Below, piece by piece: positions 20,558 to 62,784 of a DNA stretch of 64,000 bases; the first letter of the stretch is position 1, and each line of letters starts with the position of its first letter. Made by a program: the position numbers and the translations under genes. The DNA is from an uncultured Lachnospiraceae bacterium (GTDB lineage: Bacteria; Bacillota; Clostridia; Lachnospirales; Lachnospiraceae), in the NCBI GenBank assembly GCA_910587895.1, contig CAJUOE010000039.1, positions 1,711 through 65,710 of the forward strand, given 5' to 3'. The notes below the pieces were generated by a model. The model was not told where the DNA came from. It searched no databases and saw nothing but the letters and a program-made list of their open reading frames with translations.

Positions 20558-20575
20558 TGCCAAAGGGGGAAAGTC

Positions 20576-21987: not shown

Positions 21988-22015
21988 AATAACCTGGCAG
22001 GATAATGGCAGATGC

Positions 22016-23445: not shown

Positions 23446-23456
23446 GGAGACTGAAA

Positions 23457-24380
23457 ATGAGAAAGAAAATATTATTGCTGGGACTGAGCATCTGTCTTTT
23501 TGCAATATCTTGCAGCGGCAAAGACGCACCGAAGGAGAATGTTTCAGAGAACACCGAAGAAAGTGAGAAGACGGAAGAAGGAAACGGCGGGGAATCCGAA
23601 GGTGAGCCAGGCAAACAGGAGGACAAAGAGGATTCGCCGAAGGAACAGCCAAAATCAGATGGAGAAAAACAGCAGAATAATACCGTGCAGAAAGAAATTA
23701 CGAAAGTACCGCAGGTAACGTTTACAGACTACTCACAGAATATTGAGGAAGACGGCGTATTGATGCTGGCAGTGACGGAAAACTGTCCGGTTATCACGGT
23801 CGAGGAAAGTGAAGATATTGCGCAGCGGATGAATATGGTATTTGAGCAGCAGCATGTTACCAATCAGGATGAGATACAGAGGAAAGCGGAAGAGGCCAAA
23901 GCGTTCTATAAGGGATTGTCCAAGGAGGAGGTTTCTTCCTGGGCAGGTTATGGCTATGGAATGAGCTATAAGATGATGTACGCCTCTACGAAGATTTTGA
24001 GCATAGAGTCGGAGAGCTATGACTGGCAGGGAGCCTCACAGCCTGGTAAATGGACTTCCGCATATTGCTTTGATGTGACTAGCGGAGACCTGCTGTCGCT
24101 TGTGGATGTGTTTACGGATGAGGAGGCAGTGAGAAAGATTGTCTCGGAGCATATTAAGGACACCATCACGAAGGATCCGTACAAAGATGCGCTGCTGGAT
24201 GATTATGAGAGCTATGTGGATGACGTTATGACCGAAAACACATTTTATCTGAATGAGAAAGGACTGGTTGTGATCTGTAATCCTTTCATGGTCACAGGGG
24301 ACACCGTGGGTACGATAGAAGTTGAGGTTCCATATAAGGAGATAAAGGACAGGATGAATCCCGAATATGTCCTTAATTAG
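23457..24380 (+). CDS. Lipoprotein with DUF4163/DUF3298-like (RsiV/PdaC C-terminal type) domains
   Basis: Lipobox LFAISC, an acidic low-complexity linker, then the ..ILSIESESYDWQGASQPG..AYCFDV.SG..L.L.DVF.. and ..FYLNEKGLVVICNPF.. patterns typical of this family. Confidence 0.6.
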   Translation: MRKKILLLGLSICLFAISCSGKDAPKENVSENTEESEKTEEGNGGESEGEPGKQEDKEDSPKEQPKSDGEKQQNNTVQKEITKVPQVTFTDYSQNIEEDGVLMLAVTENCPVITVEESEDIAQRMNMVFEQQHVTNQDEIQRKAEEAKAFYKGLSKEEVSSWAGYGYGMSYKMMYASTKILSIESESYDWQGASQPGKWTSAYCFDVTSGDLLSLVDVFTDEEAVRKIVSEHIKDTITKDPYKDALLDDYESYVDDVMTENTFYLNEKGLVVICNPFMVTGDTVGTIEVEVPYKEIKDRMNPEYVLN

Positions 24381-30710: not shown

Positions 30711-30745
30711 GGTCTTTGCATCTTTGATGCATGAGACCTTTTTTT
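30711..30745 (+). terminator. Terminator-like hairpin in the leader upstream of the sensor kinase gene
   Basis: GGTCTtTGCAT-ctttg-ATGCAtgAGACC followed by seven T, preceded by AAAA. Confidence 0.45.
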
Positions 30746-30797
30746 GTACTGGAATTCAGGAACAAAATCTATTAAAATAGAGAATAGGGAGGACCGG

Positions 30798-32576: not shown

Positions 32577-34159
32577 TTAAGGTATTAGTGGTAGATGATG
32601 AGCAGTTTATCCGTCAGGGCCTGTGTCATCTGGTGGATTGGGAAAAATATGGCTATCAGATTGTGGCTGAGGCAGAAAACGGCTCGGATGCTATTCGCAT
32701 TCTTGAGGAAATAGAGATAGACCTGGTATTTGTTGATATCCGGATGCCCGGAATGACAGGGTTAGAACTGATTTCCTATGTACATGAAAATATCAAACGT
32801 CGGGTAGGGTTTGTAATCCTTACCGGATATGCAGATTTCAATTATGCAAGAGAGGCGTTGCGCTATAATGTACTGGATTATATTTTAAAGCCTGTATTGG
32901 AGGAAGAACTGCTTGGCGTCCTCAAAAAGATAAATAATGAATATCAGGATTACCATCAGCAGCAGAGGGATAAATATGATTTTCATATCTCACAGATCCT
33001 TCTTGGTAAGTTCTCCGATAAAAATGTAAGGCAGGTGCGGCGTTATTTATCGGGGGAAGGCAATATCAAATATGTGAGCGTGGAGTTTGACCAGAATCAA
33101 AAGGAATTTGCCTTGCTTACAAGAGAGCAGAGGATGGAGCAGCAAAGAGGGCTGTATCAATATCTTCGTGATTTGCTGGAAGAATTCTCTTATTATGTGG
33201 TGCCGCTTGTGGAAGCGGAAGAGGGAATCTTCGGCGCGGGGATTTTGTTGACGCAGCAACTGTGCAGCAAAGTGGATACGGATGAGAAAAGCTTTTTGAA
33301 GAATATCCAGAAACGCGTCACATGTCATTTTCCCTGCCCGATTCAGATTTATGTAGGGCAGGAAGTGGAAAAACTGGAGCAATTGTCGCAGTCATTCCTT
33401 TCGATCCGTGTGGCACGCTGTTTTCACGGACTGGCGCAGGAAGAATCTCGGGTGCGGAATTATGAGGATTTTGGCCATCGCAAATCATCCATGAAGATTC
33501 AGGAAAATGATGTGGAGGCGCTTTTAGAGGCGGTAAAGGAGAACCGCATTTCAGATATTGAATCCTGTGCGGAACGTATTTTTGCCCAGATACGGGGCAG
33601 TGATATGAATATGGAAATGGTCAATGCAAGCATTTATTATATACTGTATCGTTTGATGGAAATGGTACAGGAGTTTGATGACGAGACCAACCAGCAGGAA
33701 ATTCTGGAATATATCGGTAAGGAATCTTTTAACAAACTTGTGCTCAGTGGCAGCACGGAGGAGATTACCGGATTCTTTTCCGATTATGCCGGGTATCTGG
33801 CACAGGTACGCACACAGGAATCGAAGAAGGTTCTTGACCGGGTGGATGATTATGTGCGGGAAAACTATAAGGAGAAGATGAGTCTCAAATCGCTGGGTGA
33901 GCTGTTCTATGTAAACAATGTCTATCTGGGGCAGCTTTACAAGAAGAAATATGGAATCGTGTTCCGGGATTATCTGAACAACATCCGTCTGGAAAAAGCA
34001 CGGGAACTTTTAATCAATACTAATTTGAGGATTTATGCGATTGCGGAAGAGGTAGGATTTGCAAAGGCGGAGTATTTTATCAATAAGTTTGTGCAGAATT
34101 ACCATATGACGCCCAATCAGTACCGTATGCGCAATCGGAAACAGGAGGAAACAGAGTAA
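32573..34159 (+). CDS. Response regulator with AraC-type HTH output (YesN-like)
   Basis: REC domain (VLVVDDEQ..VDIRMPGMTGLEL..LTGY..KP). C-terminal AraC HTH (..VNNVYLGQLYKKKYG..IAEEVGFAKAEYFINKF...Y.MTPNQYR). TTG start overlaps the kinase stop. Confidence 0.85.
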   Translation: MIKVLVVDDEQFIRQGLCHLVDWEKYGYQIVAEAENGSDAIRILEEIEIDLVFVDIRMPGMTGLELISYVHENIKRRVGFVILTGYADFNYAREALRYNVLDYILKPVLEEELLGVLKKINNEYQDYHQQQRDKYDFHISQILLGKFSDKNVRQVRRYLSGEGNIKYVSVEFDQNQKEFALLTREQRMEQQRGLYQYLRDLLEEFSYYVVPLVEAEEGIFGAGILLTQQLCSKVDTDEKSFLKNIQKRVTCHFPCPIQIYVGQEVEKLEQLSQSFLSIRVARCFHGLAQEESRVRNYEDFGHRKSSMKIQENDVEALLEAVKENRISDIESCAERIFAQIRGSDMNMEMVNASIYYILYRLMEMVQEFDDETNQQEILEYIGKESFNKLVLSGSTEEITGFFSDYAGYLAQVRTQESKKVLDRVDDYVRENYKEKMSLKSLGELFYVNNVYLGQLYKKKYGIVFRDYLNNIRLEKARELLINTNLRIYAIAEEVGFAKAEYFINKFVQNYHMTPNQYRMRNRKQEETE

Positions 34160-34163
34160 GGTT

Positions 34164-35837
34164 ATGGAAGGGAAAGTTAGAAAACCGGGAAAAATGATGT
34201 ATGTGTGGCTGCTGTTGTTGTTGTTGCTGACAGCGCTCTCTTTTGTGGCGTTTCGATGGATACTGCGTAAATCAGGGCATGAACAGAAGTCGTTTACCGC
34301 TTTTATGGCGGTGCCGGGTGAAGAAAAGGCGAAGGATAACCGTATCTGCAATAAGATTGCAGAGCTTACGGGCGCCCGCGCAGAGATCGAATGGCTCGGT
34401 GGACAGACGCCGGAGGAAAAGATTGAGACCATGATTCAGAAAGGGGAGTATCCTGATTTTATCAATGGCGCGGACGCATCCAGTATGTTAATAGAAGCGG
34501 GGGCGCTGATACCATTGGAAGACTATCTGGAAGACTATCCGTATTTATATGATTATTTAACACCCAAACAATGGGAATCCATGCGCAAGGAAGATGGGCA
34601 TATTTATTATATTCCGCCGTTTGGGGTTGTGCAGGGACGCAATACCCAGACGATGCTCTCCGGTGAGGCATTCTGGATTCAGAAACGGGTGCTGGAATGG
34701 GCGGGATTTCCTGAGGTGAAAACACTGGATCAATATTTTGACCTGATGACATCTTACCTCAAAGAAAATCCGCAGTCCGACGGACAGGCGAATATTGGAT
34801 TTGAAATCTTATGCGATGACTGGCGGTATTTTTGCCTGGAAAATCCGGCAATGTTCCTTGCCGGTTATCCGAACGAGGGCTGTGCCATTGTGGATGAAAA
34901 GACACAGAAGGCGGCGGTATATGATACGATTCCCGAGGCAAAACAGTATTACCGGAAATTATGTGAGATGTACAATCAGGGCGTCATTGACCCGGAGACA
35001 TTTACCCTGTCTTACAGCCAGTATATTGACAAGCTTTCTGCGGGAAATGTACTTGGGTTTGTGGATCAATACTGGGAGATTATGGATGTGCAGAACAGCC
35101 TCTATGCCAATGGCAGGGAGGACAGGACTTATGTTCCGCTTGCCATTACGGCCAATGAGGAGATTGAGGGTAAATATAATTGTACCGAAATCAGCCTGAA
35201 TGTAGGAGCGGGGGTTGGGATTTCCGTAGATTGCAAGGATGTAGAGGGGGCGTTGCAGTTTCTCAATGACCTGCTGAAACCGGAGATTATGACGCTGCGC
35301 TACTGGGGCGAGGAAGGCGTTGATTATGAGGTTGATGAGCAGGGATTGTTTTATCGCACGGATGAGCAGAGAAACAACTGGGGAAATGGAGATTTCTTAA
35401 AAGAAAACACCTGTAGCTACACGTATTTTCCTGCATACGAAGGAATGTCCGCGGACGGCATCAACACGGTTCTTCCGTCGGAACAGCCCGCGGAATATTA
35501 TCAGAAACTCTCGGATTATGATAAGAAAGTTCTGGACGCCTATGGATTTCAGACATGGAAGGAGTTTTTGGGGGAAGAGACGGAGGGTAGTCCCTGGTTT
35601 CCGCTGTATTCCTGCGTTGCGGACTGGCCGGCAGACAGTGATTACGGGCAGGCAAGGGCTGATATGGAGCGGGTAAAACGTCTGTGGCTGCCGAAGGTCA
35701 TCATGTCTTCGGAGGCAGAATTTGAAAAATCGTGGTCGGACTACATGGAAACCTATCAGAATGAGGTGAATGTGGACGCATATCTGGAACAACTGAACCT
35801 GGAAATCCAAAAGAGGGTGCAGGAGGCAGGGCAATAA
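34164..35837 (+). CDS. Extracellular solute-binding protein (family 1, LplA/YesO-like), anchored by an uncleaved N-terminal TM helix
   Basis: 557 aa. The N-terminal hydrophobic helix VWLLLLLLLTALSFVAF has no lipobox Cys. The body has an SBP_bac_1-like composition. No permease or ATPase genes are adjacent. Confidence 0.7.
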   Translation: MEGKVRKPGKMMYVWLLLLLLLTALSFVAFRWILRKSGHEQKSFTAFMAVPGEEKAKDNRICNKIAELTGARAEIEWLGGQTPEEKIETMIQKGEYPDFINGADASSMLIEAGALIPLEDYLEDYPYLYDYLTPKQWESMRKEDGHIYYIPPFGVVQGRNTQTMLSGEAFWIQKRVLEWAGFPEVKTLDQYFDLMTSYLKENPQSDGQANIGFEILCDDWRYFCLENPAMFLAGYPNEGCAIVDEKTQKAAVYDTIPEAKQYYRKLCEMYNQGVIDPETFTLSYSQYIDKLSAGNVLGFVDQYWEIMDVQNSLYANGREDRTYVPLAITANEEIEGKYNCTEISLNVGAGVGISVDCKDVEGALQFLNDLLKPEIMTLRYWGEEGVDYEVDEQGLFYRTDEQRNNWGNGDFLKENTCSYTYFPAYEGMSADGINTVLPSEQPAEYYQKLSDYDKKVLDAYGFQTWKEFLGEETEGSPWFPLYSCVADWPADSDYGQARADMERVKRLWLPKVIMSSEAEFEKSWSDYMETYQNEVNVDAYLEQLNLEIQKRVQEAGQ

Positions 35838-36869: not shown

Positions 36870-37469
36870 TTAAATGGTATGAGGGCTTCGAATCACCGGC
36901 TGAATCTGTTTTCCGTTCAGCGCGGCGTCAATCGTCTCCGGAAGGAGTTCTGTAAAAGCCGTCATGGAGTTTGGTTTTGCCTGGTAATCGTCCTGTCCGA
37001 AGGGGACGAAATAAATATTTTTCGTATTCAAAAGAATGCCGATATTTTTTAAATTCATCCCCAGGGCATCATTGGTGGACAGGGAAATAACCAGCGGGCG
37101 GTTGTTGCGCAGATGGGATTTTGCAGCCATCAGCACAGGCGTATCGGAAATTCCATTTGCCAGTTTGGAAAGCGTGTTTCCGGTACAGGGAGCTATGACC
37201 AGAATATCCATCAAACCTTTGGGGCCAATCGGTTCCGCTGCAGGAATTGTGGTAATCGGCGCATGGCCGGTCAGAAGCTCTGCGCGCTCCAGAAAAGACG
37301 CGCTTGTGCCAAAGCGCGAGTCCAGGGAGGAAGCGTTTATCGAAAATACCGGGAGAAGTTTTGCGCCGGTCTGTTTTAAGTCTTCCAGTGTCCGGAATAT
37401 TTTTTCATAGGTGCAAAAGGAGCCGGTAAAACCGATTCCAATAGATTTATCATGAAAATCATAAAGCAT
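36870..37469 (-). CDS. dpaB: Dipicolinate synthase subunit B (SpoVFB, flavoprotein-like)
   Basis: 199 aa. IGIGFTGSFCTY..PV.S....SRFG..IAPCTGNTLSKLANGISDTPVLMA pattern. Overlaps the dpaA end. Confidence 0.85.
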   Translation of the reverse strand: MLYDFHDKSIGIGFTGSFCTYEKIFRTLEDLKQTGAKLLPVFSINASSLDSRFGTSASFLERAELLTGHAPITTIPAAEPIGPKGLMDILVIAPCTGNTLSKLANGISDTPVLMAAKSHLRNNRPLVISLSTNDALGMNLKNIGILLNTKNIYFVPFGQDDYQAKPNSMTAFTELLPETIDAALNGKQIQPVIRSPHTI

Positions 37470-38331
37470 GTTCAGCCATCCTTTCTATCGTCCTGCCAAT
37501 CATTTCACCGGCAGTAACAGGAGAGAAACGTCCGGGAATGCCCGGGAGCCTAAAATGAGGCAGCAGGCATTGCTCTGTAATATCCGCCGGAAAACCAAAG
37601 GGGGAAGAGGCAATGTCGAATATATGGCAGGAACTGTGCAATTGCGCTAACTGTGCGGTGTCCAGGATGGGAGCCGGTACGGTATTGATTACGAGCCGGC
37701 ATTCTGGCAGTATATGGGGAAAATCGTCGGCGCAGATGGGAGAGAGCCCCTGTTGCCTTGCATTTTCCTGTTTTTTCATGTCCTGCTCAACCAGATAAAT
37801 ATTTCCACACATTGGGAGGAACAGTTTGCTGATTGCCGCTCCGCAGAATCCGTATCCCAAAAGCAGGATGTTTACGGAGGAAAGGGCAAACGGCGTACAG
37901 CGGATAACCTCTGCCAGAACCCCTTCAGCGGTAAGCGCGGCATTTTGATTCTGGAAAAAAGCATCATTGCCAAAATCCAGAATTTCACAACCGCTATTTA
38001 CCAGTATTTTGCGATATTCTTCAGGCAGGTTACAGACTGCCAATCTATGATTTGAAGTGAGTAAGTCCCACAGGTCATCCAGAGGACAGGGCATGGCATT
38101 CGTCTCTGCCTGATACAGGTTCTTTTTGTCACGCGTCAATGGTGTAGGCGCAAGGATCATACGGCAATGTTCCAGGGCGTCTGTCAGGGAATCCGCCTGT
38201 ATAATTCCGGATTTATATGGGAAATCCGGCGTACGGCAGCACGTGACATTCCAGCCAAGAGAATGCAGGTATTGTGCAGCATAACATTGTCTCATGTCTC
38301 CACCGAGTATGGTGATATTTGGCATCTCCAT
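37459..38331 (-). CDS. dpaA: Dipicolinate synthase subunit A (SpoVFA)
   Basis: 290 aa. N-terminal ILGGDMRQ..., Rossmann motif LLLGYGFCG. Paired with dpaB. Confidence 0.8.
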   Translation of the reverse strand: MEMPNITILGGDMRQCYAAQYLHSLGWNVTCCRTPDFPYKSGIIQADSLTDALEHCRMILAPTPLTRDKKNLYQAETNAMPCPLDDLWDLLTSNHRLAVCNLPEEYRKILVNSGCEILDFGNDAFFQNQNAALTAEGVLAEVIRCTPFALSSVNILLLGYGFCGAAISKLFLPMCGNIYLVEQDMKKQENARQQGLSPICADDFPHILPECRLVINTVPAPILDTAQLAQLHSSCHIFDIASSPFGFPADITEQCLLPHFRLPGIPGRFSPVTAGEMIGRTIERMAEHAL

Positions 38332-42990: not shown

Positions 42991-43255
42991 TTTGAAATTC
43001 TCCTTTAATTTTTTCGTCCAAATGTATAATAAATTATGGTTATCTGCCGGATATGTTATCATAGGGCTTATTTCATGTCAAGATTATTGAAGAAACATGT
43101 ACAAGTTTTGTAAAATAGAAGTTAAAATCCTTATTTCTAAAATATTGAATAGCACCATATAACCTGCTATAATCAATGTTAAGAGAGAACATGGCATAAA
43201 GTGGATTTTGTTGACGGAATTTGGGATATCGAACGTCAGGAAGGGGGATTTTGCG

Positions 43256-45613
43256 ATGATGAAATATGCAAAACATATCATAGCCGTACTTTTAGTGATC
43301 ACCATGCTATTTACAGGGGTAGGTTTTGCAGCGGCAGAAGGAAATAACGACGAATTTCAGGAATGGGTATTGGAAAATGTAAAGTTCGGGCATCTTGGCA
43401 TTTCTTTTGAATTTGGCGGTTTACTGCCGCCACAGGAGGCAAGGGCTGTCATTTCCTCTTCTTCAGAGGAAGAGCCAATGGAAATTAGCATAGATTTTAT
43501 GATAGAAGAAGGGAAGAAGGGGTACCAGCTTTCAATTCCCGAAGGTTCTTATCTGGAAAGCGGAAAGAACTATTGCCTGAAATTATATGGGCAGAATGGA
43601 GAAGAGGCGTCTGAAAATGGGGAAGTAGAATGCGATTTTTCTGCTGAAATATATTATGAACGCGATCGGGTGGATATTGATTATAAATCGGACTGCAAAA
43701 TAGTGCAGGCGGTGGCAGAAGTGGATTCTGTCGAATACGAAGGGGTGATTCAGGATAACAATATTGTTATTTTGTATCCGCAGTTAGAAAGTGACCGAAA
43801 GGTAACGGTTAAGATTTCTGACGAATATGGCTGTGTGCGGACATATACAGGGAAGACGGAAATGTCGGATGTTTTAAGATACATGGTTCTTAAGGCATTT
43901 CCAGATGGTATAAGATTTGAAAAGTATGTTGGGTTTACGCAATTTTCTGCGGATGAGAGGATGGCAGTAAAGGTTGGGGAAGAGGTTTATTATACGGAAT
44001 ACGGTTATGAAGCGGATAGGGAAACCAGGTTTGGAAGTGTGCAGTATCCTTTGCAGCAGCCAGGCACGAGGATTACTGTTTGGATGGAAAATAAAAGCGG
44101 GGTCATAACCCTGAAAAAGAAGTTTACCATCAAGGAATGTAGTTTTTTGACAGCATACAACAGGGCATATCCGGAAATGCTGACAGGAAACGTGTATGAA
44201 AGATCTTTGAAACAGGTTCCGACGAAGGTTCGTGTTCGAATTGGAGGAAGGGTTTATGAAGAACGTGTTGACCAATATGGCAACTTTACGGTTATGTATC
44301 CGGAGCAGCGGGAAGGCGCGGAGCTGACGTTCGACCTTATGGATGATCATGGATGCTGCCTCACACAGACGACGCGTGTGCTGAATGAATTTGTGGATGT
44401 TTCTGTATTAGAGGAATATAATGACAGAGATAGTATATTGGATGTCACTGCGACAGCAGTATATGCAAAATCAATAATACATGGCAGGATTTGCGTACAA
44501 ATTGGCGAAAATGTGTATAAGGGATCTGATGAACATGTTGAGCATGATTCAGGATGGTGTGTTATGGTGAGCTATCCGGAGCAGAAACCGGGTACGGCAA
44601 TTACGGTCTGGTATGAGGATTTAAACACGTCGAAGGGAACAAAAATGAATTTTAAAATTCCCAGTCCGCCCAAGGTCAAGCTTGACATCGTGGAGTTCAC
44701 GTATAATTATATTGAATTTGAACCATATTTTTATCTCGGTGATTCTGAATATTCGGAGGATATAGAGAAAGCATATGCATATATCAATGGCAAGAAATAT
44801 AAGGCAAAAGGTGGCGGTGATGATGTTGATGATACTTTTTATATAGAGTATTCTGTGAAAGTTGGGTCTACAATCAAAATTATCATTACCGATGAAGAGG
44901 GCAATGATTATGAAGTCGCCTATAAGATACCGCATACGCTGTCGGACATTCATCTGAACAAGGTGGAGTCTGGAAGCTGGAAGGTTACAGGGGACACGGT
45001 ACCAAAGGCTTCCGTGTCGGTAAAAATTGGCAAAAAGACATACAAGTCGAAAGCCAAAAAAGATGGCAGCTTTTCTGTCAAGGTTAAGCCTCATAAGACC
45101 GGGACAAGAGTTACATTGTTCGTAAAGACGAAAGAAGGGGCTTATGGGAAAAGGACAACGAAGATCAAAAGGGCAAAAGGAACGATAAAATTTACCAATA
45201 CCATTTTCCGCGACAGCGGGAAGGTTTCGTGCAAGGTTACCGGTGCATACAAAGGCGATGTCGTGACAGTGAATGTGGGCGGCAGGACTTATAAGAAAAG
45301 AATAACGTCGAATAAGAGAAGGCAGATTGTGACTATTCCCATAGGTTCGGCAACGGCTGGGGAACAGGCAAGGGCAACCTATAGCGACAGGTTTAAGAAA
45401 CGAAAGGATTATGATTCCCGCATGGTTTATTATGGAGATTCAATATATGTGGGGATGTCCATTGGTGATGCGTGTCTGACGACCTGGGGCAGTCCAAAGC
45501 AGAGAAATTATTATGGGGGGAACTGGGAACAATGGGTTTTCTCCAGCGGTGGAAGTATGCTGTTCGTTTATGTGCAGGATGGCAAGGTTGTCCTCATTCA
45601 GAGAATGAATTAA
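43256..45613 (+). CDS. Secreted 785-aa protein built from repeated Ig-like/beta-sandwich modules with a small BamE/SmpA-like C-terminal domain
   Basis: Signal peptide (..GVGFAAAEG). A recurring module signature occurs at least 6 times: ..V.YP.Q.PG..ITVW..D / ..K.GK.TYK.K..KDGSFSV.V...K.GT.V.. . C-terminus: GDSIYVGMSIGDACLTTWGSP...WVFSSGGSMLFVYVQDGKVVLIQ. Confidence 0.7.
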   Translation: MMKYAKHIIAVLLVITMLFTGVGFAAAEGNNDEFQEWVLENVKFGHLGISFEFGGLLPPQEARAVISSSSEEEPMEISIDFMIEEGKKGYQLSIPEGSYLESGKNYCLKLYGQNGEEASENGEVECDFSAEIYYERDRVDIDYKSDCKIVQAVAEVDSVEYEGVIQDNNIVILYPQLESDRKVTVKISDEYGCVRTYTGKTEMSDVLRYMVLKAFPDGIRFEKYVGFTQFSADERMAVKVGEEVYYTEYGYEADRETRFGSVQYPLQQPGTRITVWMENKSGVITLKKKFTIKECSFLTAYNRAYPEMLTGNVYERSLKQVPTKVRVRIGGRVYEERVDQYGNFTVMYPEQREGAELTFDLMDDHGCCLTQTTRVLNEFVDVSVLEEYNDRDSILDVTATAVYAKSIIHGRICVQIGENVYKGSDEHVEHDSGWCVMVSYPEQKPGTAITVWYEDLNTSKGTKMNFKIPSPPKVKLDIVEFTYNYIEFEPYFYLGDSEYSEDIEKAYAYINGKKYKAKGGGDDVDDTFYIEYSVKVGSTIKIIITDEEGNDYEVAYKIPHTLSDIHLNKVESGSWKVTGDTVPKASVSVKIGKKTYKSKAKKDGSFSVKVKPHKTGTRVTLFVKTKEGAYGKRTTKIKRAKGTIKFTNTIFRDSGKVSCKVTGAYKGDVVTVNVGGRTYKKRITSNKRRQIVTIPIGSATAGEQARATYSDRFKKRKDYDSRMVYYGDSIYVGMSIGDACLTTWGSPKQRNYYGGNWEQWVFSSGGSMLFVYVQDGKVVLIQRMN

Positions 45614-46243: not shown

Positions 46244-49200
46244 TTGAAGAAACGAGGAAACTTAAAGAGGAGAATTGGTTCGCTTGCGCTGGCAGCGGCA
46301 ATGGCAGTGACTTCAGTTCCGGCGCTTGGCAGGGAAGTCCATGCGGCTGGGACGTCAGAGCCCACCAAGTTTGCGACGGTAGAACAGCTAAAGGCTTTCA
46401 ACACGGATGAAACGGACGGCACAAATTCGGCAAAGCTCTATTTTGGAAAGGACAACCAGGAATGGTGGATAGCGGGAAGCCAGGGCGGGGACAGCGTGAC
46501 GCTGTTTTCGGCAAGCCCGCTGATGGAAGAGACAACTTTTTGCAGCGGCCTTAGCAGCGATAAACCATATGAGGCTGATTCTGGTTGTATTTATGAAACA
46601 GAGCCATCACGAGTATATCATAATCATTATGGGACCAGTCCGATGAGAACGAAGGTAAAACAACTGGAAGCATCTTTCTTTTCAACGGAAGAGCAAGGCC
46701 TGATGAAGGATACAACGATCTATACGTACGATACGTATAACGAGGTATATTATGCCACAGCCGATAAACTGTATCTGGTAAATGGCATATATTCAGCCGG
46801 TAAATCCAATTGGCTCATAGTGGGAGAAAATGGCCCTGGCGATTCATATTACAATGGCTTGCGTGTCGATTCTATATATTGGGGAGAGGAAAGTAGTAAT
46901 TATCATCCGAACTTTTGGCTGCGCATACCCGCGAAACCGTTCGGCTCTAGTTCGTACGGCGGTGATGCTATGTGTGCGAAGCTGTATGATGGATGGGGAA
47001 ACGTTAGCAGCTCTTCACCTGGCTCCTCCAAGCGTGAAGTGCGGCCCACTTTCGAACTGGACCTGTCCCCTGTCCTCTTCGCGTCTGCCGCGGAAGCGTC
47101 ATTGACGGAAAGCACAGGGGCAAAGATAGGGGACGATGCGGCAATGTCATTGAGGCTGGACGGCGCCGACCGAAAGATAGGAACCGTGAAATATGACAAT
47201 GGGATCGATGGAATTGTGGCGCAGAGGGATGCAGACGCAGAGGCAATCGTCTCCCTTGTGATCCAGGGCAATGACGGGACCAGCGACTGGTATTACAGCG
47301 TGCCTGTAGGGGAAGTGGAGACGGCTGTCACAAAAGAGCAGATCCAGGAAACCTGCCAAATATCCGGGGACATTGACTTTGCAGACTGTGTGTTCTGGCT
47401 GGAAATGACATTGGGCGAAAGCAAGATGCCTTATGCCAAGATGGGCAGGAACCCCTTATTGAAACCAGGAAAAACAATCGTGCTGGAAGGAGCAACCATA
47501 AAAAACACTACGTATGGCCAGGTTCAAATAGACAGGGGGCACGACGGGACGAATGACGTGAGAGTCGAGCTGCCGGGGGGGAAGGGCAACGTCCAGGTTG
47601 CCGAGGATGGCAGGGTTACCGTGCCTGCCGGAGGAAAGGTACGGGTCGGGAACGAGGAGTGGATGACCCTGCCAAACGGCGGTATCGTTGACATATTCGG
47701 AAACGTAGAGGCCGACGGGATCATCAGAGGGGGGATCACGGCAGCGGCGCCGGAGGGAGGAAAGGTCACGACGGACGTGGATGGGAAGATTACCGTGCCC
47801 GCCGGAGGAAAGGTGCAGACTGGGGAAGGAGAAGAGATGGGGCTGCCGAACGGCGGGACCGTTGACAAGGACGGGACCGTAGAGGCGGACAAGATTGTCC
47901 GAGGCGAAACCACAGTAACGGCGCCGGAGGGAGGAAAGGTCACGGCGGACAAAGATGGGAAGATTACCGTGCCTGCCGGAGGAAAGGTGCAGACCGGGGA
48001 AGGAGAAGAAATGGAGCTGCCGGAGGGCGGGACCGTTGACAAGGACGGGAACGTGGAGCAGGCAGGAACCCCGGGAAAGCCCTTTGAAGGCTCAGGAACG
48101 GCAGAAGACCCATACCAGATTGGCAGCCGGGCAGACCTGGAGAAGCTGCGTGACCTTGTCAACGGCGGGGAAAGCCAGGAAGGCATCCATTTCAAGGTAA
48201 CTGCCGACATAGACCTGGGCGGCAGCGCAGGGAACCCATGGACACCGATTGGGACGGAGGAACACCCATTCAAAGGGATATTGGACGGAAACAGCCGCAC
48301 GGTAAGCGGGCTGTACATCAATGACGCCAATGGGAACAACCAGGGGCTCTTTGGGGTCAATGGGGGAACCATCAAAAGCCTTACCGTGTCAGGAACCGTG
48401 ACGGGCAAGGACAACGTGGGCGGAATCGCCGGGAGCAACACAGGGGCGATCAGGGACTGCACCACTAACGTGGACGTGAGCGGGGAAGACAACGTGGGCG
48501 GAATTGCCGGAAAGAATGAAGGAACCATTATGGGCTGCATGAACAATGGAAGCGTGACCGGAACTGGAACCGGCGTCGGAGGCATCACCGGGAACAACGC
48601 GGGAACCGTGAACGTAAGCGGCAACACAGGCGACGTAAGCGGCAACAGCAGCGTGGGAGGAATTGCCGGAAGGAACGACGGAACGCTGGACAGCGGCACC
48701 AACACCGCCCCCGTGGCAGGCAAGGACGACGTGGGAGGAATTGCCGGAACGAATGGAACGAATGGAACCGTAGAAGGCTGCACCAACTCCGGGAATGTGA
48801 CAGGCACGGGAGATGGAGGCGGCAAGCCGGGAGCCATCATAGGAAACAACCAGAACACTAATGGGGACGCCGTGAAGAATGACTACTACCAGAAGACGGA
48901 GAACATCAACAAGGACCTGACCGGAATCGGGGAAGGCACAGGCTCCGGGACGGACCCGGCAGGGATTGCCTCCGGGCAGACGCCGATAAACCCAGGCAAG
49001 CCGTTCAATGGTTCAGGAACAGCGGAAGACCCCTACCAGATTGGCAGCCGGGCAGACCTGGAGAGGCTGCGCGACCTTGTCAACGGAGGGGAAAGCCAGG
49101 AAGGCATCTATTTCAAGGTAACTGCCGACATAGACCTGGGCGGCAGCGCAGGGAACCCATGGACGCCGATTGGGACGGAGGAACACCCATTCAAAGGGAC

Positions 49201-51475
49201 AATAGAGGGGGAAGCCCGCAATGGGGACTCGCCCACGGTAAGCGGGCTGTACATCGATGACGCTAGCAAGGACAACCAGGGACTCTTTGGAGTCAACGGG
49301 GGAACCATCAAGAACCTGACGGTGGAGGGAACCGTGACAGGCAGGGGCAATGTCGGGGGAATCGCTGGAAGGAACGACGGGACGATCATCAGCTGCATGA
49401 ACAGAGCGACCGTGGCTGGAAACGGAAATGACGTGGGAGGCGTCGCCGGGATCAACGCGGGAACGATAAGGGACAGTTTCAACACAGGGACAGCAAGCGG
49501 CAAGGACAACGTCGGGGGGATTGCCGGGACCAATACAGGGACGGTAAGCGGCGGCGGAAATTCAGGAGAGGTGAGCGGCAGCAACAATGTGGGGGGAATC
49601 ATAGGAAACAATGCCGGAGAGGCAAGCGGATTCTTCAACAGCGGAAAAGTAGACGGCAAGGACAACGTTGGGGGGATTGCCGGAACCAGCACAAGCTCCG
49701 TAAGCATGAGCAACAACGGGGGAGAGGTGAGCGGCGTCAACAATGTCGGGGGAATTGTTGGGCACAACACAACGTCGGCAGGCAAACTCGGCAATGCGGG
49801 CAACAACACGAACTTCGGGGACGTCACCGGGACTGGGACAGGAGTCGGAGGGATTGCCGGGAAGAATGACAGCATGCTCAGCTACAACGTCAACGAGGGG
49901 AAGGTCACCGGGGGGAACAATGCCGGGGGGATCGCCGGGGACAACGGCGAGAACGGCAGCGTGAAAAACGACACGAACTCCGGAGAAGTCACCGGAGGGG
50001 ACAACGTCGGCGGAATTGCCGGGAACAATGCCGGAACCATAAGCGGAGAAGAGAACACAGGCGACGTAAGCGGAAACGACAATGTCGGGGGAATCACCGG
50101 GAACAACGGTGGAACTGGCATCGTGGAGGACAGCACGAACAATGGAACCGTCACCGGGGGTGGAACCGGCGCGGGAGGAATCGCCGGAAGGAACGACGGT
50201 ACGCTGAAAGACGACACGAACACCGCCCCCGTGGCAGGCAAGGACGACGTGGGAGGAATTGCCGGAACGAATGGAACGAATGGAACCGTAGAAGGCTGCA
50301 CCAACTCTGGGAATGTGACATCTACGGGAGATGGAGGCGGCAAGCCGGGAGCCATCATAGGAAACAACCAGAACACCAATGGGGACGCTGTGAAGGACGA
50401 CTACTACCAGAAGACGGACGAGGTCAACAAGGACCTGACCGGAATCGGGGAAGGCACAGGCTCCGGGACGGATCCGGCAGGGATCACCTCCGGGCAGACG
50501 CCGATAAAGCCGGGGGATTCCAATATGGACCAGGCAGCGGCAGACCATGTGAAGGGGCTGATCGACGCCATCCCCAGCCCTGTTAAGCTGGATGGGGAGA
50601 CAAAACAGAAGATTGACGCCGCCAGGGCGGCATATGAAGGGCTGACCGCCGCCCAGAAGGCATTGGTTCCGGAGGGAACCAGGAAGAAACTGGAAGACGC
50701 GGAGAAGGAATACAGTGACCTGGAAAGGCTGGCAGCCCTGCCACCGGAAACGAAGAAGCAGGTCGAGGACATCGCGGAGACACTGGGCATCAGCATTGAG
50801 GAGGCACAGGAGATCCAGAAGATTGCAAAAGACCTGGGAGTGGACTTAGAGACCCTGCTGATCACCGACGACAGCATCCTGGGGCAGAAGTCGGAAAGCG
50901 ACATCCGAGGCTCAGTGTTCAGCAAGCTCCAGGCAAAGGCGACCAAGATAACTGCGACCAAGGCCACCCTGACATGGAAGAAGGTCAAAGGGGCGGACGG
51001 CTACCTGATATACGGGGCAAGCTGCGGGAAGAACAACAAGCTGAAACTGCTGAAGACATTGAAGGGCGGGAACAAGCAGAAGTACACCCAGAGCAGGCTG
51101 AAGAAGAACTCCCCGTACAAATACGTGGTGCGCGCCTACAAGCTGGTGGGCGACAGGAAAATCACGATCTCAGCCTCCAAGATGCTCCATGTGTTCACGA
51201 CCGGCAAGTATGTGAACGCCAAGGGAGTGAAGCTGAACAAGACGAAGGCATCCATAAAGAAAGGGAAGACCTTCCGGATCAAGGCGAAGGTAGTATTGGG
51301 CAGCAAGAAAGGAAAATTCAAGCAGCACCGCAAGATCTGCTACGAGAGCAGCAATGCAGCGGTGGCGACCGTGACGAAGAAGGGCGTCATCAAAGGAAAG
51401 AAGAAAGGAACCTGCAGCATATATGTATATGCCCAGAATGGCGTATACAAGACAATCAAGGTAACTGTAAAATAG
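46244..51475 (+). CDS. Giant secreted GLUG-motif repeat protein (1743 aa): DUF6273-like N-domain, FN3-like and Big_2-like C-terminal domains
   Basis: TTG start 9 nt after GGAGGA, with a signal peptide (..VPALGREVHA). N-domain ..NFWLRIPAKP..EVRPTFELDLSPVLFASAA. More than 30 copies of the (D/N)NVGGI(A/T)G.N.G.(I/V) GLUG-type unit. Then ..ATLTWKKVKGADGYLIYG.. (FN3-like) and ..SSNAAVATVTKKGVIKGKKKGTCSIYVYA (Big_2-like). No LPXTG, SLH or choline-binding anchor seen. Confidence 0.8.
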   Translation: MKKRGNLKRRIGSLALAAAMAVTSVPALGREVHAAGTSEPTKFATVEQLKAFNTDETDGTNSAKLYFGKDNQEWWIAGSQGGDSVTLFSASPLMEETTFCSGLSSDKPYEADSGCIYETEPSRVYHNHYGTSPMRTKVKQLEASFFSTEEQGLMKDTTIYTYDTYNEVYYATADKLYLVNGIYSAGKSNWLIVGENGPGDSYYNGLRVDSIYWGEESSNYHPNFWLRIPAKPFGSSSYGGDAMCAKLYDGWGNVSSSSPGSSKREVRPTFELDLSPVLFASAAEASLTESTGAKIGDDAAMSLRLDGADRKIGTVKYDNGIDGIVAQRDADAEAIVSLVIQGNDGTSDWYYSVPVGEVETAVTKEQIQETCQISGDIDFADCVFWLEMTLGESKMPYAKMGRNPLLKPGKTIVLEGATIKNTTYGQVQIDRGHDGTNDVRVELPGGKGNVQVAEDGRVTVPAGGKVRVGNEEWMTLPNGGIVDIFGNVEADGIIRGGITAAAPEGGKVTTDVDGKITVPAGGKVQTGEGEEMGLPNGGTVDKDGTVEADKIVRGETTVTAPEGGKVTADKDGKITVPAGGKVQTGEGEEMELPEGGTVDKDGNVEQAGTPGKPFEGSGTAEDPYQIGSRADLEKLRDLVNGGESQEGIHFKVTADIDLGGSAGNPWTPIGTEEHPFKGILDGNSRTVSGLYINDANGNNQGLFGVNGGTIKSLTVSGTVTGKDNVGGIAGSNTGAIRDCTTNVDVSGEDNVGGIAGKNEGTIMGCMNNGSVTGTGTGVGGITGNNAGTVNVSGNTGDVSGNSSVGGIAGRNDGTLDSGTNTAPVAGKDDVGGIAGTNGTNGTVEGCTNSGNVTGTGDGGGKPGAIIGNNQNTNGDAVKNDYYQKTENINKDLTGIGEGTGSGTDPAGIASGQTPINPGKPFNGSGTAEDPYQIGSRADLERLRDLVNGGESQEGIYFKVTADIDLGGSAGNPWTPIGTEEHPFKGTIEGEARNGDSPTVSGLYIDDASKDNQGLFGVNGGTIKNLTVEGTVTGRGNVGGIAGRNDGTIISCMNRATVAGNGNDVGGVAGINAGTIRDSFNTGTASGKDNVGGIAGTNTGTVSGGGNSGEVSGSNNVGGIIGNNAGEASGFFNSGKVDGKDNVGGIAGTSTSSVSMSNNGGEVSGVNNVGGIVGHNTTSAGKLGNAGNNTNFGDVTGTGTGVGGIAGKNDSMLSYNVNEGKVTGGNNAGGIAGDNGENGSVKNDTNSGEVTGGDNVGGIAGNNAGTISGEENTGDVSGNDNVGGITGNNGGTGIVEDSTNNGTVTGGGTGAGGIAGRNDGTLKDDTNTAPVAGKDDVGGIAGTNGTNGTVEGCTNSGNVTSTGDGGGKPGAIIGNNQNTNGDAVKDDYYQKTDEVNKDLTGIGEGTGSGTDPAGITSGQTPIKPGDSNMDQAAADHVKGLIDAIPSPVKLDGETKQKIDAARAAYEGLTAAQKALVPEGTRKKLEDAEKEYSDLERLAALPPETKKQVEDIAETLGISIEEAQEIQKIAKDLGVDLETLLITDDSILGQKSESDIRGSVFSKLQAKATKITATKATLTWKKVKGADGYLIYGASCGKNNKLKLLKTLKGGNKQKYTQSRLKKNSPYKYVVRAYKLVGDRKITISASKMLHVFTTGKYVNAKGVKLNKTKASIKKGKTFRIKAKVVLGSKKGKFKQHRKICYESSNAAVATVTKKGVIKGKKKGTCSIYVYAQNGVYKTIKVTVK
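47573..48060 (+). repeat. About 2.8 tandem copies of a 174-bp (58-aa) unit inside the GLUG protein gene
   Basis: Units start near 47573 (diverged), 47747 and 47921. They encode APEGGKVT.D.DGKITVPAGGKVQTGEGEEM.LP.GGTVDKDG.VE. Confidence 0.75.
48071..49198 (+). repeat. Dispersed direct repeat A (207 bp) at 48071-48277 and 48992-49198
   Basis: The two copies are near-identical at DNA level. They encode GKPF.GSGTAEDPYQIGSRADLE.LRDLVNGGESQEGI.FKVTADIDLGGSAGNPWTPIGTEEHPFKG. Weaker similarity continues ~160 bp further. Confidence 0.8.
48666..50508 (+). repeat. Dispersed direct repeat B (325 bp) at 48666-48990 and 50184-50508
   Basis: Equal-length copies with only scattered substitutions. They encode GRNDGTL.D.TNTAPVAGKDDVGGIAGTNGTNGTVEGCTNSGNVT.TGDGGGKPGAIIGNNQNTNGDAVK.DYYQKT...NKDLTGIGEGTGSGTDPAGI.SGQTPI. 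Confidence 0.8.
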
Positions 51476-59634: not shown

Positions 59635-59831
59635 TTGTAATGTCCCCCTTTTGGAATATTGCGTGATTTATTTCTTGAATGTGAGAAAATAAATCAGATT
59701 TGTAATTATTATCTGAAACTTCAGATAATAAATTAATTACCATATATCCATTATAGACCTTTTAAGGAAAAAAACAATACGTAAAATGACTTTTATGTAG
59801 AAATATGAAAATTGCATACAGAGTGGCTGGA

Positions 59832-59894
59832 GCCAAAATTGACATGTTTGCAGCCAAAATTGACATGTTTGCAGTCAGAATTGACACGTTTGGA
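59832..59894. repeat. Three tandem 21-bp repeats upstream of spoIIID
   Basis: GCCAAAATTGACATGTTTGCA twice exactly (59832-59852, 59853-59873), then GTCAGAATTGACACGTTTGGA (59874-59894). Followed by the palindrome GACAGAagTCTGTC. Confidence 0.85.
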
Positions 59895-59984
59895 GACAGA
59901 AGTCTGTCCAAAATAAACACCGGTGTCATAACTGCCGTAAGTCTTTCATACATTATAAAAAAAGTAGTGTATGAGGGTATTTCG

Positions 59985-60245
59985 TTGAAAGGATACATAG
60001 AGGAACGGGCAGTGAATATTGCTAACTATATAATCGAGGAGAATGCAACCGTGCGGCAGACTGCAAAAAAATTCGGCATCAGCAAGAGCACGGTACATAA
60101 GGATGTCACAGAACGACTAACCCAGATTAATCCGACACTTGCCGCTGAAGCGCGCAAGGTTCTGGATGTCAATAAGTCAGAACGCCATATTCGGGGCGGT
60201 CTGGCAACCAGGGAAAAATACCTGCACCAAAAAGGGGCTGTCTGA
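59985..60245 (+). CDS. spoIIID: Sporulation transcriptional regulator SpoIIID
   Basis: 86 aa from the TTG at 59985 (GAGGG upstream). ..YIEERAVNIANYIIEENATVRQTAKKFGISKSTVHKDVTERL..INP.LA.E....L..NKSERHIRGG.AT is the SpoIIID HTH pattern. The 146-aa track ORF is an upstream extension with no RBS. Confidence 0.85.
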   Translation: MKGYIEERAVNIANYIIEENATVRQTAKKFGISKSTVHKDVTERLTQINPTLAAEARKVLDVNKSERHIRGGLATREKYLHQKGAV

Positions 60246-60344
60246 TACAGCCCCTATTTGTATGACAAAATAAATCAATAAAAATGATTAAATTTATCAC
60301 TATACAAGATGTTCTTTGTGTGTTAAGATAAGAAACATGAAAAA

Positions 60345-60686
60345 CGAGGAAGAGGAAGAGTAGCTGTGGCGGAACTTACAGAGAGCCATCGGTGGTGGAA
60401 GATGGCAGTGACAAGACAGTGAACTGGCCTTGGAGTTTCCGGCTGAAAAGATGGTACCAGGAGAGGCAGATTGAACTGTTTGCCGGGTGGGAAAGTAAGC
60501 CAGGACGGGTTCTCCCGTTACAGGGATATGCATGGAAGTGTGCGGCAGATTTTGAATGGAGAAATGCCGGGACAGGCACGGAGTGCAGATGAGGGCATGG
60601 AAACATGAAGTAGAGTGGTACCGCGCAGGATTGCATAATCTTTCGTCTCTATTATCGTCAGGATAGTGGATGCGGAGGATTTTTTC
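60345..60686 (+). promoter_or_regulatory. T-box leader (Leu specifier) with intrinsic terminator
   Basis: AGTA box (gAGTAg), AG bulge AGAGAG, distal-loop GGTGGTGGAA, and F-box CCGTTA (60514-60519). T-box core AGAGTGGTACCGCG (60612-60625). The candidate specifier loop ..GTGAACTGGCCTTGGAGTT.. contains only Leu codons (CUG/CUU). Terminator: 18-nt arms 60639-60656 / 60662-60679 (several G.U pairs) plus TTTTTT. Confidence 0.75.
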
Positions 60687-60780
60687 GTGTCTTCTGATTA
60701 TGACGATACGAAGAATTTTAAGATAATATAAAGTGAGCGGAAGCGGGGATGCCTGCTTTGTCATAAAAAGAATGGAGGAC

Positions 60781-62784
60781 ATGATGAAGAATTTTGAAAA
60801 GTATCAAAGACAGTATTTTATGCCGCCCCAGGTCACATATGACTGGGTAAAGAAGGAATATATTACCAGGCCGCCCATTTGGTGCAGCGTTGATTTGCGG
60901 GATGGCAACCAGGCGTTGATTGAGCCTATGAGCCTGGATGAAAAACTGGAATTTTTTCAGCTCCTTTTGGATGTCGGTTTTAAGGAGATTGAGGTAGGAT
61001 TTCCGGCAGCTTCCGATACGGAGTATAATTTTATGCGCACATTGATTGAGCGCGATATGATTCCTGATGATGTGACGGTGCAGGTATTGACGCAGGCGAG
61101 AGAGCATATCATCCGCAAGACCTTTGAGGCGGTAAAAGGCGCGCCTCATGCGGTGGTGCATCTGTATAATTCAACTTCCCTGGCACAGCGTGAGCAGGTA
61201 TTTAAAAAGAGCAAGGAAGAGATCAAGCAGATTGCGGTGGAGGGCGCCATACTGCTGAAACAGCTTGCAGATGAGACAGAAGGCAATTTTACCTTCGAAT
61301 ACAGTCCGGAAAGTTTTTCCGGGACAGAGGTGGATTATGCGTTGGACGTATGCAACGCTGTGCTTGATATCTGGCAGCCGACACCGGACAAAAAGGTGAT
61401 TATCAATCTGCCGACAACTGTGGAAAATGCCATGCCTCATATTTTTGCTGGGCAGGTAGAATATATGAGCAAGCATATGCATTTCCGTGAGAACGTCGTG
61501 CTTTCCCTTCATCCGCATAACGACCGCGGGGTTGGAATCTGTGATGCGGAATTTGGGATTCTTGCCGGTGCGGATCGGATTGAGGGAACCTTGTTTGGAA
61601 ATGGGGAGCGTACCGGAAACGTTGATATTGTGACGCTTGCAATGAATATGTTTTCCCATGGAGTTGACCCGAACCTGGATTTCAGCAATATGTCAAGGAT
61701 TGCTGAGATTTATGAGCGCTGTACGCGTATGCAGGTATCGCCCAGGCAGCCTTATGCCGGAGAGCTGGTGTTTACGGCATTTTCAGGTTCACACCAGGAT
61801 GCCATTGCCAAGGGAATGGCGTGCAGGGAGCAGAACATGGACGGGGCATGGACGGTGCCGTACCTGCCGATTGACCCCAAAGACGTGGGGCGCACGTATG
61901 ATTCCGACGTTATCCGTATCAACAGCCAGTCCGGAAAGGGAGGCGTCGCTTACATCCTTAAGCAGAATTATGGCATTGTGATTCCGGAGAAAATGCGGGA
62001 GGAAGTGGGTTATACCGTAAAGGGCGTTTCCGACCGTCGCCACATGGAGCTGTCTCCGAAATTAATTTATGATATTTTTGAGGAACACTATGTAAAAAAT
62101 ATGCCTCATTTTCAGATTACGGAATGCCATTTCAGGCAGAAAGACGGAATTCTGGCGGAGGCTACGCTTTCCCATGGCGGGCAGGTGCGGACCGTTACCG
62201 GAAATGGAAATGGACGCCTCGATGCAGTGAGCAATGCATTGAAACAGTATTTTAACATCAGTTATGAATTATCCGTATATGAGGAGCATTCGCTTTCCAG
62301 AGGCTCTTCCGCAAAAGCGGTTTCCTATGTGGGAATTTTGTGCAACAGCCAGATGTACTGGGGCGTGGGGATTGATGAGGATATCATTTCTTCCTCCATA
62401 GAGGCGTTATGCGTAGCGGTAAACAAGCTGGAGCATATTAAAAATACGGAACAGTGCCGGGATGAGCGGCTGAATGAAATTATGAACTATATCCAGGAGC
62501 ATTACCTGACTGTGACTTTGGATGAGCTGGCAGAAAAGTTGAATTTGTCCAAACCATATTTGTCCAAATACATCAAGGAGAAATCCGACAAAACATTTAG
62601 CGATATTGTGCGGAATGTCCGCATGAAAAAAGCGCGGGCGCTGTTGAAAAATACCAGTATGACCGTGGATAGCATTGCGGACAGCGTAGGTTACCAGAAT
62701 GTGGAGCATTTCAACCGTCTCTTTAAGAAAAAATATGATATGACGCCGGTGCAGTATCGCAATAGCAAACAGGGGATGAAGTAG
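60781..62784 (+). CDS. leuA: 2-isopropylmalate synthase (long LeuA type) fused at its C-terminus to an AraC/XylS-type HTH domain
   Basis: [34 protein letters not shown] and [10 protein letters not shown] LeuA regulatory-domain-like segment ends near ..[25 protein letters not shown]. The same ORF then continues with ..[64 protein letters not shown] (two AraC HTH motifs). Start at ATG 60781 or 60784. Confidence 0.8.

Follow-up and report, generated by a model that had tools for sequence, protein, structure and literature searches.

A 2-isopropylmalate synthase fused to an AraC-type DNA-binding domain in gut Lachnospiraceae: a candidate leucine-sensing enzyme and regulator of its own gene

We analyzed a stretch of 64,000 nucleotides, hereafter the window, from an uncultured Lachnospiraceae bacterium (assembly GCA_910587895.1, contig CAJUOE010000039.1), in which one gene (60784..62784, forward strand; 666 amino acids plus the stop codon) encodes a 2-isopropylmalate synthase (LeuA) joined in frame to an AraC-type DNA-binding domain. 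2-Isopropylmalate synthase is the enzyme of the first committed step in leucine synthesis. With moderate confidence, and on the strength of sequence comparisons, we propose that the leuA-araC product is a bifunctional 2-isopropylmalate synthase whose AraC-type domain lets it control the transcription of its own gene as well. The protein probably senses leucine and tunes its own production. A leucine-sensing enzyme-regulator is favored by purifying selection on the DNA-binding domain, by relatives with a dead enzyme that keep the leucine site and the helix-turn-helix (HTH) domain, and by a candidate operator at the gene's own promoter.

A complete LeuA and an AraC-type domain in one reading frame

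The open reading frame (ORF) at 60733..62784 (+) is free of stops throughout. Translation likely starts at ATG 60784, because the N-termini of orthologs read MKNFEKY and a ribosome-binding site, GGAGGA, read from the sequence and these N-termini, lies at 60774..60779 (+). An alternative start at ATG 60781 gives 667 residues, and the Pfam domain numbering used here is that of the 667-residue version. The original prediction had seen a complete LeuA in a single uninterrupted ORF, running in frame into an AraC domain with both HTH units, and had suggested a profile scan of the product. The scan detected HMGL-like (residues 33-309, 222 bits), IPMS_D2 (328-394, 118 bits), LeuA_dimer (424-550, 83 bits), HTH_18 (583-661, 77.6 bits, cutoff 33.6) and HTH_AraC (622-661, 54 bits, cutoff 26.6), bearing out both parts of the claim. 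The long-form 2-isopropylmalate synthase model PRK03739 of NCBIfam scored 813 bits against a cutoff of 455, and TIGR00970 scored 684.5 bits, slightly under its cutoff of 697.4.

The catalytic TIM barrel (HMGL-like) with its IPMS_D2 subdomain occupies 60877..61962 (+), where the motifs, including SGSHQDA, are all intact; the metal- and substrate-binding motifs DLRDGNQ, HxH and GNGERTGN are kept. It is followed by the LeuA allosteric (dimerization) domain at 62050..62430 (+), with conserved leucine-site motifs including YWGVGID; GNGRLDA, GSSAKA and WGVGID of the window protein align with motifs of Mycobacterium tuberculosis LeuA. A short linker (62431..62460, +), modeled with lower confidence than the domains on either side, leads to the AraC/XylS-type DNA-binding domain (62461..62766, +) with seven helices and two HTH units. 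M. tuberculosis LeuA (1sr9) aligns with residues 26-549 of the fusion protein (E = 4e-156). The 1sr9 chain ends three residues past the position aligned to AVNK549, and since canonical LeuA stops at that point, the last ~117 residues of the fusion are extra. The best solved relatives of this tail, by sequence matches to the PDB, are the DNA-binding domains of YesN, XylR, SoxS, Rns and MarA. The window also holds a YesM/YesN-like pair (30744-35834, +), consisting of a His_kinase sensor and a response regulator with HTH_18 output and followed by a solute-binding protein; among solved structures, DNA-binding domains of the YesN type are likewise nearest to the fused domain.

In an AlphaFold2 (AF2) monomer model, the regulatory domain folds as two beta-beta-beta-alpha units over residues 443-547 and the seven helices of the DNA-binding domain span residues 561-661. 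The last regulatory helix (534-547) passes through a lower-confidence linker of 10-13 residues into helix 1 of the DNA-binding domain. According to Pfam, the companion of the AraC-type HTH is a complete LeuA enzyme, and not a cupin, PBP-like, GATase1-like or receiver sensor. The fusion is a new architecture within the AraC/XylS family, not a typical member of it.

Spread of the fusion and selection on its domains

To survey relatives, one genome per GTDB species was queried with an alignment covering the regulatory domain together with the HTH. The loci analyzed are the best 80 of 545 confirmed relatives, some of which may be standalone AraC proteins; each of the 80 covers the regulatory domain as well as the HTH. 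The identical four-domain architecture recurs in every one of the 120 best protein clusters (77-91% identity), and where the database names them, they are plainly called '2-isopropylmalate synthase'. Every full-length ORF among the 80 best species genomes (78 of 78) is unbroken and keeps the four catalytic motifs checked, DLRDGNQ and GSHQDA among them. The fusion architecture is common, not rare, and widespread in gut Lachnospiraceae, and the literature searched holds no functional description of it.

Most carriers belong to the Lachnospiraceae, among them Dorea, Coprococcus comes, Mediterraneibacter, Bariatricus, Schaedlerella, Merdimonas, Mordavella, Roseburia porci and others. Three of the 80 best genomes belong to Negativicutes, namely Sporomusa silvacetica, S. 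acidovorans and Pelosinus. The proteins of S. silvacetica and Pelosinus are 77-79% identical to those of the Lachnospiraceae clade carrying a T-box leader (described below), an identity that points to horizontal transfer, and the Sporomusa and Pelosinus copies look horizontally acquired. The window protein itself is 100% identical to one from a mouse-gut-type Lachnospiraceae metagenome-assembled genome (MAG). This MAG contains two fusion copies (L006 on contig CANOFO010000131.1 and L008 on CANOFO010000108.1), 100% and ~92% identical to the window protein, each with SpoIIID upstream and GuaA downstream, and it is probably a mixed-strain or mixed-species bin. Three further loci are titled Bacteroidaceae (L030), Thermoguttaceae (L037) and Anaerovoracaceae (L043). 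They are typical of Lachnospiraceae in sequence (65-70% identity) and have matching promoter sites, and contamination or mislabeled bins are the likely source of these labels.

Among intact orthologs the barrel is the best-conserved part (83-95% identity). Across close and distant ortholog pairs, the ratio of nonsynonymous to synonymous substitution rates (dN/dS) was 0.013-0.07 for the catalytic part, 0.04-0.15 for the regulatory domain and 0.03-0.11 for the DNA-binding domain, with synonymous sites saturated (dS 1.2-2.5, above 1 in each pair where it could be estimated). These low ratios indicate that all three modules are maintained by selection, and the estimates place the DNA-binding domain under strong purifying selection.

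A candidate operator travels with the fusion gene

A 36-bp candidate operator, Site 1 (ACAAAATAAATCAATAAAAATGATTAAATTTATCAC, 60265..60300, +), lies upstream of the fusion gene at about -71 to -36 relative to a transcription start inferred near 60336. Its consensus across the fusion promoters is tTAAAAtAnATCAAtaaAAnTGATTAAAtttatCAC. Within the site are an ATCA-N7-TGAT dyad and a direct repeat whose period is 22 bp, and the self-similarity of its position weight matrix (PWM) peaks at a shift of 22 bp. Downstream of it is an extended -10 element, TGtTAAGAT (60321..60329, +), with the consensus TGnTAnnnT across 75 loci; the consensus of the same 75 fusion promoters shows no conserved -35 hexamer. 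The distance from the start of Site 1 to the -10 hexamer is nearly fixed (59 bp in 73 and 58 bp in three of 76 loci), and it is this spacing that places the site at about -71 to -36. A site in this position, a direct repeat of about two helical turns and the absence of a -35 hexamer are characteristic of class II activation by AraC/XylS proteins.

The window copy of Site 1 scores 38 bits and, with both strands of the 64 kb scanned, is the sole PWM match that reaches 12 bits. Site 1 was found at 14 bits or more upstream of the gene in all 77 usable fusion loci, among them those Negativicutes loci whose upstream sequence could be used, and it occurs across at least three unrelated gene neighborhoods. 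Fusion promoters without a T-box have one conserved layout, whatever their neighborhood. A second copy of its core, Site 2, occurs at about +3 to +30 in 47 of the 52 loci that have no T-box. The two sites are 63 bp (n = 6) or 72-76 bp (n = 40) apart, corresponding to six or seven helical turns and hence in phase, with one outlier at 42 bp (n = 1). T-box loci carry Site 1 only.

The motif is highly specific to fusion promoters. In 0.97 Mb of related loci, 118 matches of at least 18 bits fell in fusion promoters and five elsewhere; two of these five were upstream of fusion genes missed by the ORF script, two preceded another fusion gene by ~1 kb, and one was weak. A metagenome scan with the 16-base core of Site 1 returned 80 loci that were analyzed, in which all 17 matches of at least 26 bits lay upstream of a fusion homolog or at a contig end. 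The remaining matches were low-scoring chance occurrences, except for one weaker site upstream of a fusion gene. No match of 8 bits or more was present upstream of ilvN, ilvC or leuC in loci L051, L210 and L211. As a control we used the nearest unfused long-form LeuA (locus L212; 550 residues, ~60% identical, without an HTH), the first gene of a leuA-leuC-leuD-leuB operon with a T-box of 100.6 bits and a canonical TTGACA -35 hexamer; its 17.6 kb contain no Site-1-like match of 6 bits or more. Site 1 thus accompanies the gene from one neighborhood and bacterial class to another and is missing from this unfused control. The most economical interpretation is that the predicted Site 1 is bound by the fused DNA-binding domain, which would amount to autoregulation.

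Known regulator sites were also considered. CodY, ARG, cre and T-N11-A LysR boxes were rejected since none fits Site 1 convincingly, and the ATC-N9-GAT core is LysR-like in form only.

Gene neighborhood and leucine T-box leader

In the window, the fusion gene lies between SpoIIID (59805-60242, +) upstream and GuaA (from 62855) downstream. A terminator-like hairpin (60233..60255, +) ends the upstream spoIIID gene and sets the leuA-araC unit apart. A Pfam scan of ~45 non-overlapping ORFs across the window, each 100 residues or longer, turned up no leu or ilv gene, so that the solitary position between spoIIID and guaA described by the original prediction was recovered. The gene is likewise solitary in almost all loci examined, with no adjoining leu or ilv genes in 84 of 85, and linkage to a leu operon was rejected on these grounds. 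Three recurrent and mutually unrelated neighborhoods were found: MCP-SpoIIID-[fusion gene]-GuaA, ScpA-ScpB-PBP5-[fusion gene]-carboxyltransferase and SSS symporter-[fusion gene]. The neighbors of the Sporomusa and Pelosinus fusion genes are unrelated to all three settings.

The exception is a locus near Eubacterium ramulus (L051), with the order ilvC-leuC-leuD-thrC-[fusion gene] in a cluster without another leuA. A LeuC-seeded search returned E. ramulus strains only, and these have an ilvN-ilvC-leuC-leuD-thrC cluster without any leuA and without the fusion at that spot. The presence or absence of the fusion is thus polymorphic (L051 4634-6726 versus about 13562-15600 in L210 and L211). In the E. 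ramulus-like MAG of L051, the fusion gene with its Site 1 and a tetR gene stand between thrC and deoC. In the E. ramulus strains this spot is filled either by a 119-residue ORF together with a Peripla_BP gene or by a two-component system.

The gene in the window has its own T-box leader (60338..60653, +), as claimed from the letters alone, which matched Rfam RF00230 with 103.3 bits against a gathering score of 93. Alignment to the Rfam model places the specifier codon, CUG (Leu), at 60424-60426 (+) in the context GAA-CUG-G. The T-box sequence itself (AGTGGTACCGCG) is at 60614-60625 (+), and an intrinsic terminator, a 19-bp stem followed by a U-run, at 60638..60685 (+). In 22 related leaders the specifier is CUG or CUC, both Leu codons: the 18 leaders from the clade of the window have CUG, and those of Sporomusa, Pelosinus, L035 and L070 have CUC. 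The T-box was rejected as a trait of the whole family, as only ~25 of 77 loci carry one and its distribution is lineage-specific.

Catalytically degenerate relatives

An exhaustive profile search with the C-terminal 244 residues returned only ~45 clusters (50% identity) at E <1e-30, of which ~25 span the regulatory domain and the HTH. Six members of the family (P0122, P0132, P0133, P0138, P0141 and P0143) are divergent and have lost the catalytic motifs, and five of the six lack most of D2. All six keep the leucine-site motifs GNGRLDA, YEEHxLxxGSSxKA and YWGxG together with the recognition helices. Conservation is reversed in these degenerate members, with the barrel worst (21-43% identity) and the HTH best (53-66%) conserved. 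All 41 invariant alignment columns fall within residues 294-656, 38 of them in the regulatory domain and HTH, and the recognition helices do not vary among proteins with an overall identity of only 35-90%. Such a pattern would be expected if the regulatory domain and the HTH formed a sensor-output unit able to outlive catalysis. P0138 occupies the same neighborhood as an intact Bariatricus fusion (ScpA-ScpB-PBP5-[gene]-carboxyltransferase), and for this reason it is a decayed ortholog rather than an old paralog.

The gene for degenerate P0143 (L087 8001-9749) begins 7 nucleotides after rpoD in a dnaG-rpoD cluster and appears to be co-transcribed with this primary sigma factor gene. Four short proteins of 160-200 residues (P0152, P0161, P0190 and P0232) carry the C-terminal half of the DNA-binding domain at 70-80% identity behind unrelated N-termini; they were rejected as standalone paralogs, since they look like products of chimeric or misassembled short contigs.

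Proposed mechanism

We suggest, more tentatively than bifunctionality itself, that the fusion is a self-contained module in which one leucine pocket would serve both the feedback inhibition of the enzyme and, through the fused AraC domain, effector sensing at phased operators of the gene's own promoter. The gene would move between bacterial classes together with its operator, and would decay in some lineages to a dead, leucine-sensing factor. The two DNA-binding domains of a LeuA dimer, presented from the regulatory-domain dimer that forms the leucine pockets, would bind Site 1 and Site 2. Leucine in the allosteric pocket would alter how they engage DNA, and the route of coupling may be the C-terminal helix of the allosteric domain, followed by the linker of 10-13 residues and the DNA-binding domain. 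In the most likely logic, the leucine-free protein would activate from Site 1, and the leucine-bound protein would either fail to activate or additionally occupy Site 2 and repress. Site 2, a phased copy that follows the transcription start, is reminiscent of repression through looping or a roadblock. In the window's lineage, the Leu T-box stands where Site 2 sits elsewhere, and initiation may be set there by the leucine state of the enzyme and elongation by the charging of tRNA-Leu.

Several observations weigh against autoregulation through Site 1 by a leucine-gated DNA-binding domain. The domains fold in the AF2 monomer model with a mean pLDDT of 74, but the pTM is 0.49 and interdomain packing is unreliable, so that the model does not show whether the HTH packs against the regulatory domain. 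Site 1 is AT-rich and overlaps the position of an UP element. The degenerate relatives keep the HTH without a good Site 1: L005 has a relic of 17.7 bits, and none was found in loci L086 to L088. Retention of the HTH without Site 1 implies other DNA targets, which suggests that the DNA-binding domain may act elsewhere. Finally, standalone cupin-AraC regulators (P0254) share the recognition-helix motifs and are 49% identical across the DNA-binding domain, so that a paralog could be the true binder of Site 1.

Alternative explanations

The strongest alternative, which we regard as unlikely, is that the fusion is mainly a leucine-sensing transcription factor. It would be a recruited paralog, with a barrel that is structural or senses substrate, and a canonical leuA elsewhere would make the leucine. 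This would fit a solitary gene that almost never stands beside leu genes, occupies one locus in only part of the E. ramulus group, looks horizontally acquired in Sporomusa and Pelosinus, and has relatives with dead catalytic motifs that persist with leucine site and HTH intact. However, the catalytic domain is the best-conserved part of intact members and has the lowest range of dN/dS, the four motifs checked are kept in every one of the 78 ORFs, a Leu T-box is typical of a biosynthetic gene, and the ilvC-leuC-leuD cluster of L051 has no leuA besides the adjacent fusion.

Somewhat less probable still is control of a wider regulon, for example one of branched-chain amino acid synthesis or transport, with Site 1 being one target among several or bound by another factor. 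The degenerate members that retain the HTH without an autoregulatory site speak for it, and the inspection for further targets covered only ~12 kb per genome. Yet neither the 64-kb window nor the 0.97 Mb of related loci yielded a second site, none precedes the visible ilvN, ilvC and leuC genes of L051, L210 and L211, and the high-scoring sites of the metagenome scan occur only at fusion genes.

An inert or decaying DNA-binding domain, tolerated after an accidental fusion, with Site 1 being an UP element or the site of an unrelated regulator, is strongly disfavored already, and we consider it very improbable. The AT-rich sequence of Site 1 and its UP-element position would suit this explanation. 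Against it, the dN/dS of the DNA-binding domain is low at saturated synonymous sites, the recognition helices are invariant among otherwise diverged proteins, and the HTH is the best-conserved domain in the degenerate relatives. In Site 1, the G and C positions are the most conserved, and Site 2 repeats the motif downstream of the transcription start. Lastly, a missed stop or frameshift that merges leuA with a separate araC-type gene has a negligible probability and is refuted by the identical unbroken frame in 78 independently assembled species genomes, complete Sporomusa chromosomes included, and in more than 120 protein clusters, which upholds the earlier description of an in-frame fusion as opposed to two adjacent genes.

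Comparison with known systems

Full-text literature searches found no description of a LeuA-HTH fusion, in line with the original prediction, whose author knew of no characterized LeuA-AraC fusion. Enzymes with a DNA-binding domain of their own include PutA (a proline dehydrogenase bearing a ribbon-helix-helix domain), BirA (a biotin ligase that doubles as repressor), NadR and Ada. Like PutA, BirA and NadR, the fusion combines a metabolic enzyme with a DNA-binding domain and is predicted to regulate its own gene or that of its pathway according to the state of a metabolite. It differs from them in that the DNA-binding domain is AraC-type and C-terminal, the presumed sensor is a dedicated allosteric feedback domain instead of the active site, and the geometry of the candidate operator (-71 to -36) is that of an activator. 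Ada and AdaA also carry an AraC/XylS domain on a catalytic domain, a DNA methyltransferase, and regulate their own gene, as is predicted here; the signal of Ada is covalent self-methylation in DNA repair, whereas that of the fusion would be the reversible binding of an end-product amino acid. The fusion is set apart from PutA, BirA, NadR and Ada by its allosteric feedback domain joined to an AraC domain, its defined candidate operator and the dead derivatives within its family.

With class II regulators such as AraC, XylS and RhaS the fusion shares the two-HTH domain, a candidate site at about -71 to -36 with a 22-bp repeat, a promoter without a -35 hexamer and a second, phased site at a distance. 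The proposed leucine logic resembles the switch of AraC between adjacent half-sites and a loop. Unlike these regulators, the fusion has no cupin or periplasmic-binding-protein-like sensor, and an enzyme dimer of 550-residue subunits would presumably both sense and dimerize; unlike in AraC, its second site follows the transcription start, at a distance of only 63-76 bp from the first. Canonical leuACDB and ilv-leu operons under T-box control in Firmicutes, represented by L212, resemble the fusion in their long-form LeuA (~60% identical) and Leu T-box leader. In contrast to the fusion, the LeuA of L212 ends at 550 residues without an HTH, leads an operon and is preceded by a TTGACA -35 hexamer and no Site 1.

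MocR and GabR join a GntR HTH to an aminotransferase fold, other regulators likewise sense through an enzyme domain that is catalytically dead, and the six degenerate relatives of the fusion are similarly predicted to keep an enzyme fold as the sensor of an HTH protein. In the present family, by contrast, the window enzyme has intact motifs and intact and decayed forms coexist, the decayed P0138 even occupying the gene neighborhood of an intact fusion. In yeast, Leu3 is a separate Zn2Cys6 factor that senses the LeuA product alpha-isopropylmalate (compare PMC6221358). The fusion would likewise tie the expression of a leucine-pathway gene to the state of the LeuA step, but with sensor, enzyme and DNA-binding domain predicted to reside in a single polypeptide.

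Other features of the window and related loci

The window begins within another fused gene (56-1393, +; cut at the window start), in which one ORF encodes an Ammonium_transp domain (residues 2-275) and a C-terminal P-II domain (331-436); this ORF is an Amt-GlnK/P-II fusion and not two adjacent genes. A GA-cis RNA motif (10064-10151, +; 42.5 bits, gathering score 34.7) falls within the 5' end of ORF 9988-11079 as called by program, which encodes a thioredoxin-reductase-like protein. Because the Pyr_redox_2 match begins at residue 63, the true start of this ORF is probably downstream of the motif. A TPP riboswitch (19085-19184, 64 bits) heads a thiamine cluster (19085-24377) with thiC, thiW, hydroxyethylthiazole kinase and phosphomethylpyrimidine kinase. 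Dipicolinate synthase subunits are encoded at 36873-38331 (-), a DpaA_N protein beside a Flavoprotein-family DpaB-like protein, and together with SpoIIID they indicate that the host is a spore-forming member of the Lachnospiraceae. An ORF of 1743 residues (46244-51472, +) with weak GLUG and Big_2 matches only and a Big_6 protein of 801 residues (43208-45610, +) are probably cell-surface proteins. The related loci contain further structured RNAs: a SAM riboswitch (L035 7853-7958), a glmS ribozyme (L036 47-244) and a 6S RNA (L051 11569-11753).

Implications

If the fusion works as proposed, it would be a natural case of end-product control by one protein, in which a single leucine site throttles the enzyme and resets its gene. 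Trigger enzymes that bear a DNA-binding domain themselves are few, and the fusion would add to them a case that is AraC-type and driven by an allosteric domain. It would present the stages of enzyme, bifunctional protein and catalytically dead regulator within one family. It would also offer a leucine-responsive transcription factor and its operator ready for biosensor work. Engineering of the regulatory domains of allosteric enzymes for biosensors is reported to be under way (PMC13381585). The old idea that leucine genes are regulated autogenously by the synthase becomes directly testable, as an operator and its geometry are now predicted. The carriers include abundant Lachnospiraceae of the human and mouse gut (Dorea, C. 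comes, Mediterraneibacter, Bariatricus and Schaedlerella), in which branched-chain amino acid metabolism is of physiological interest.

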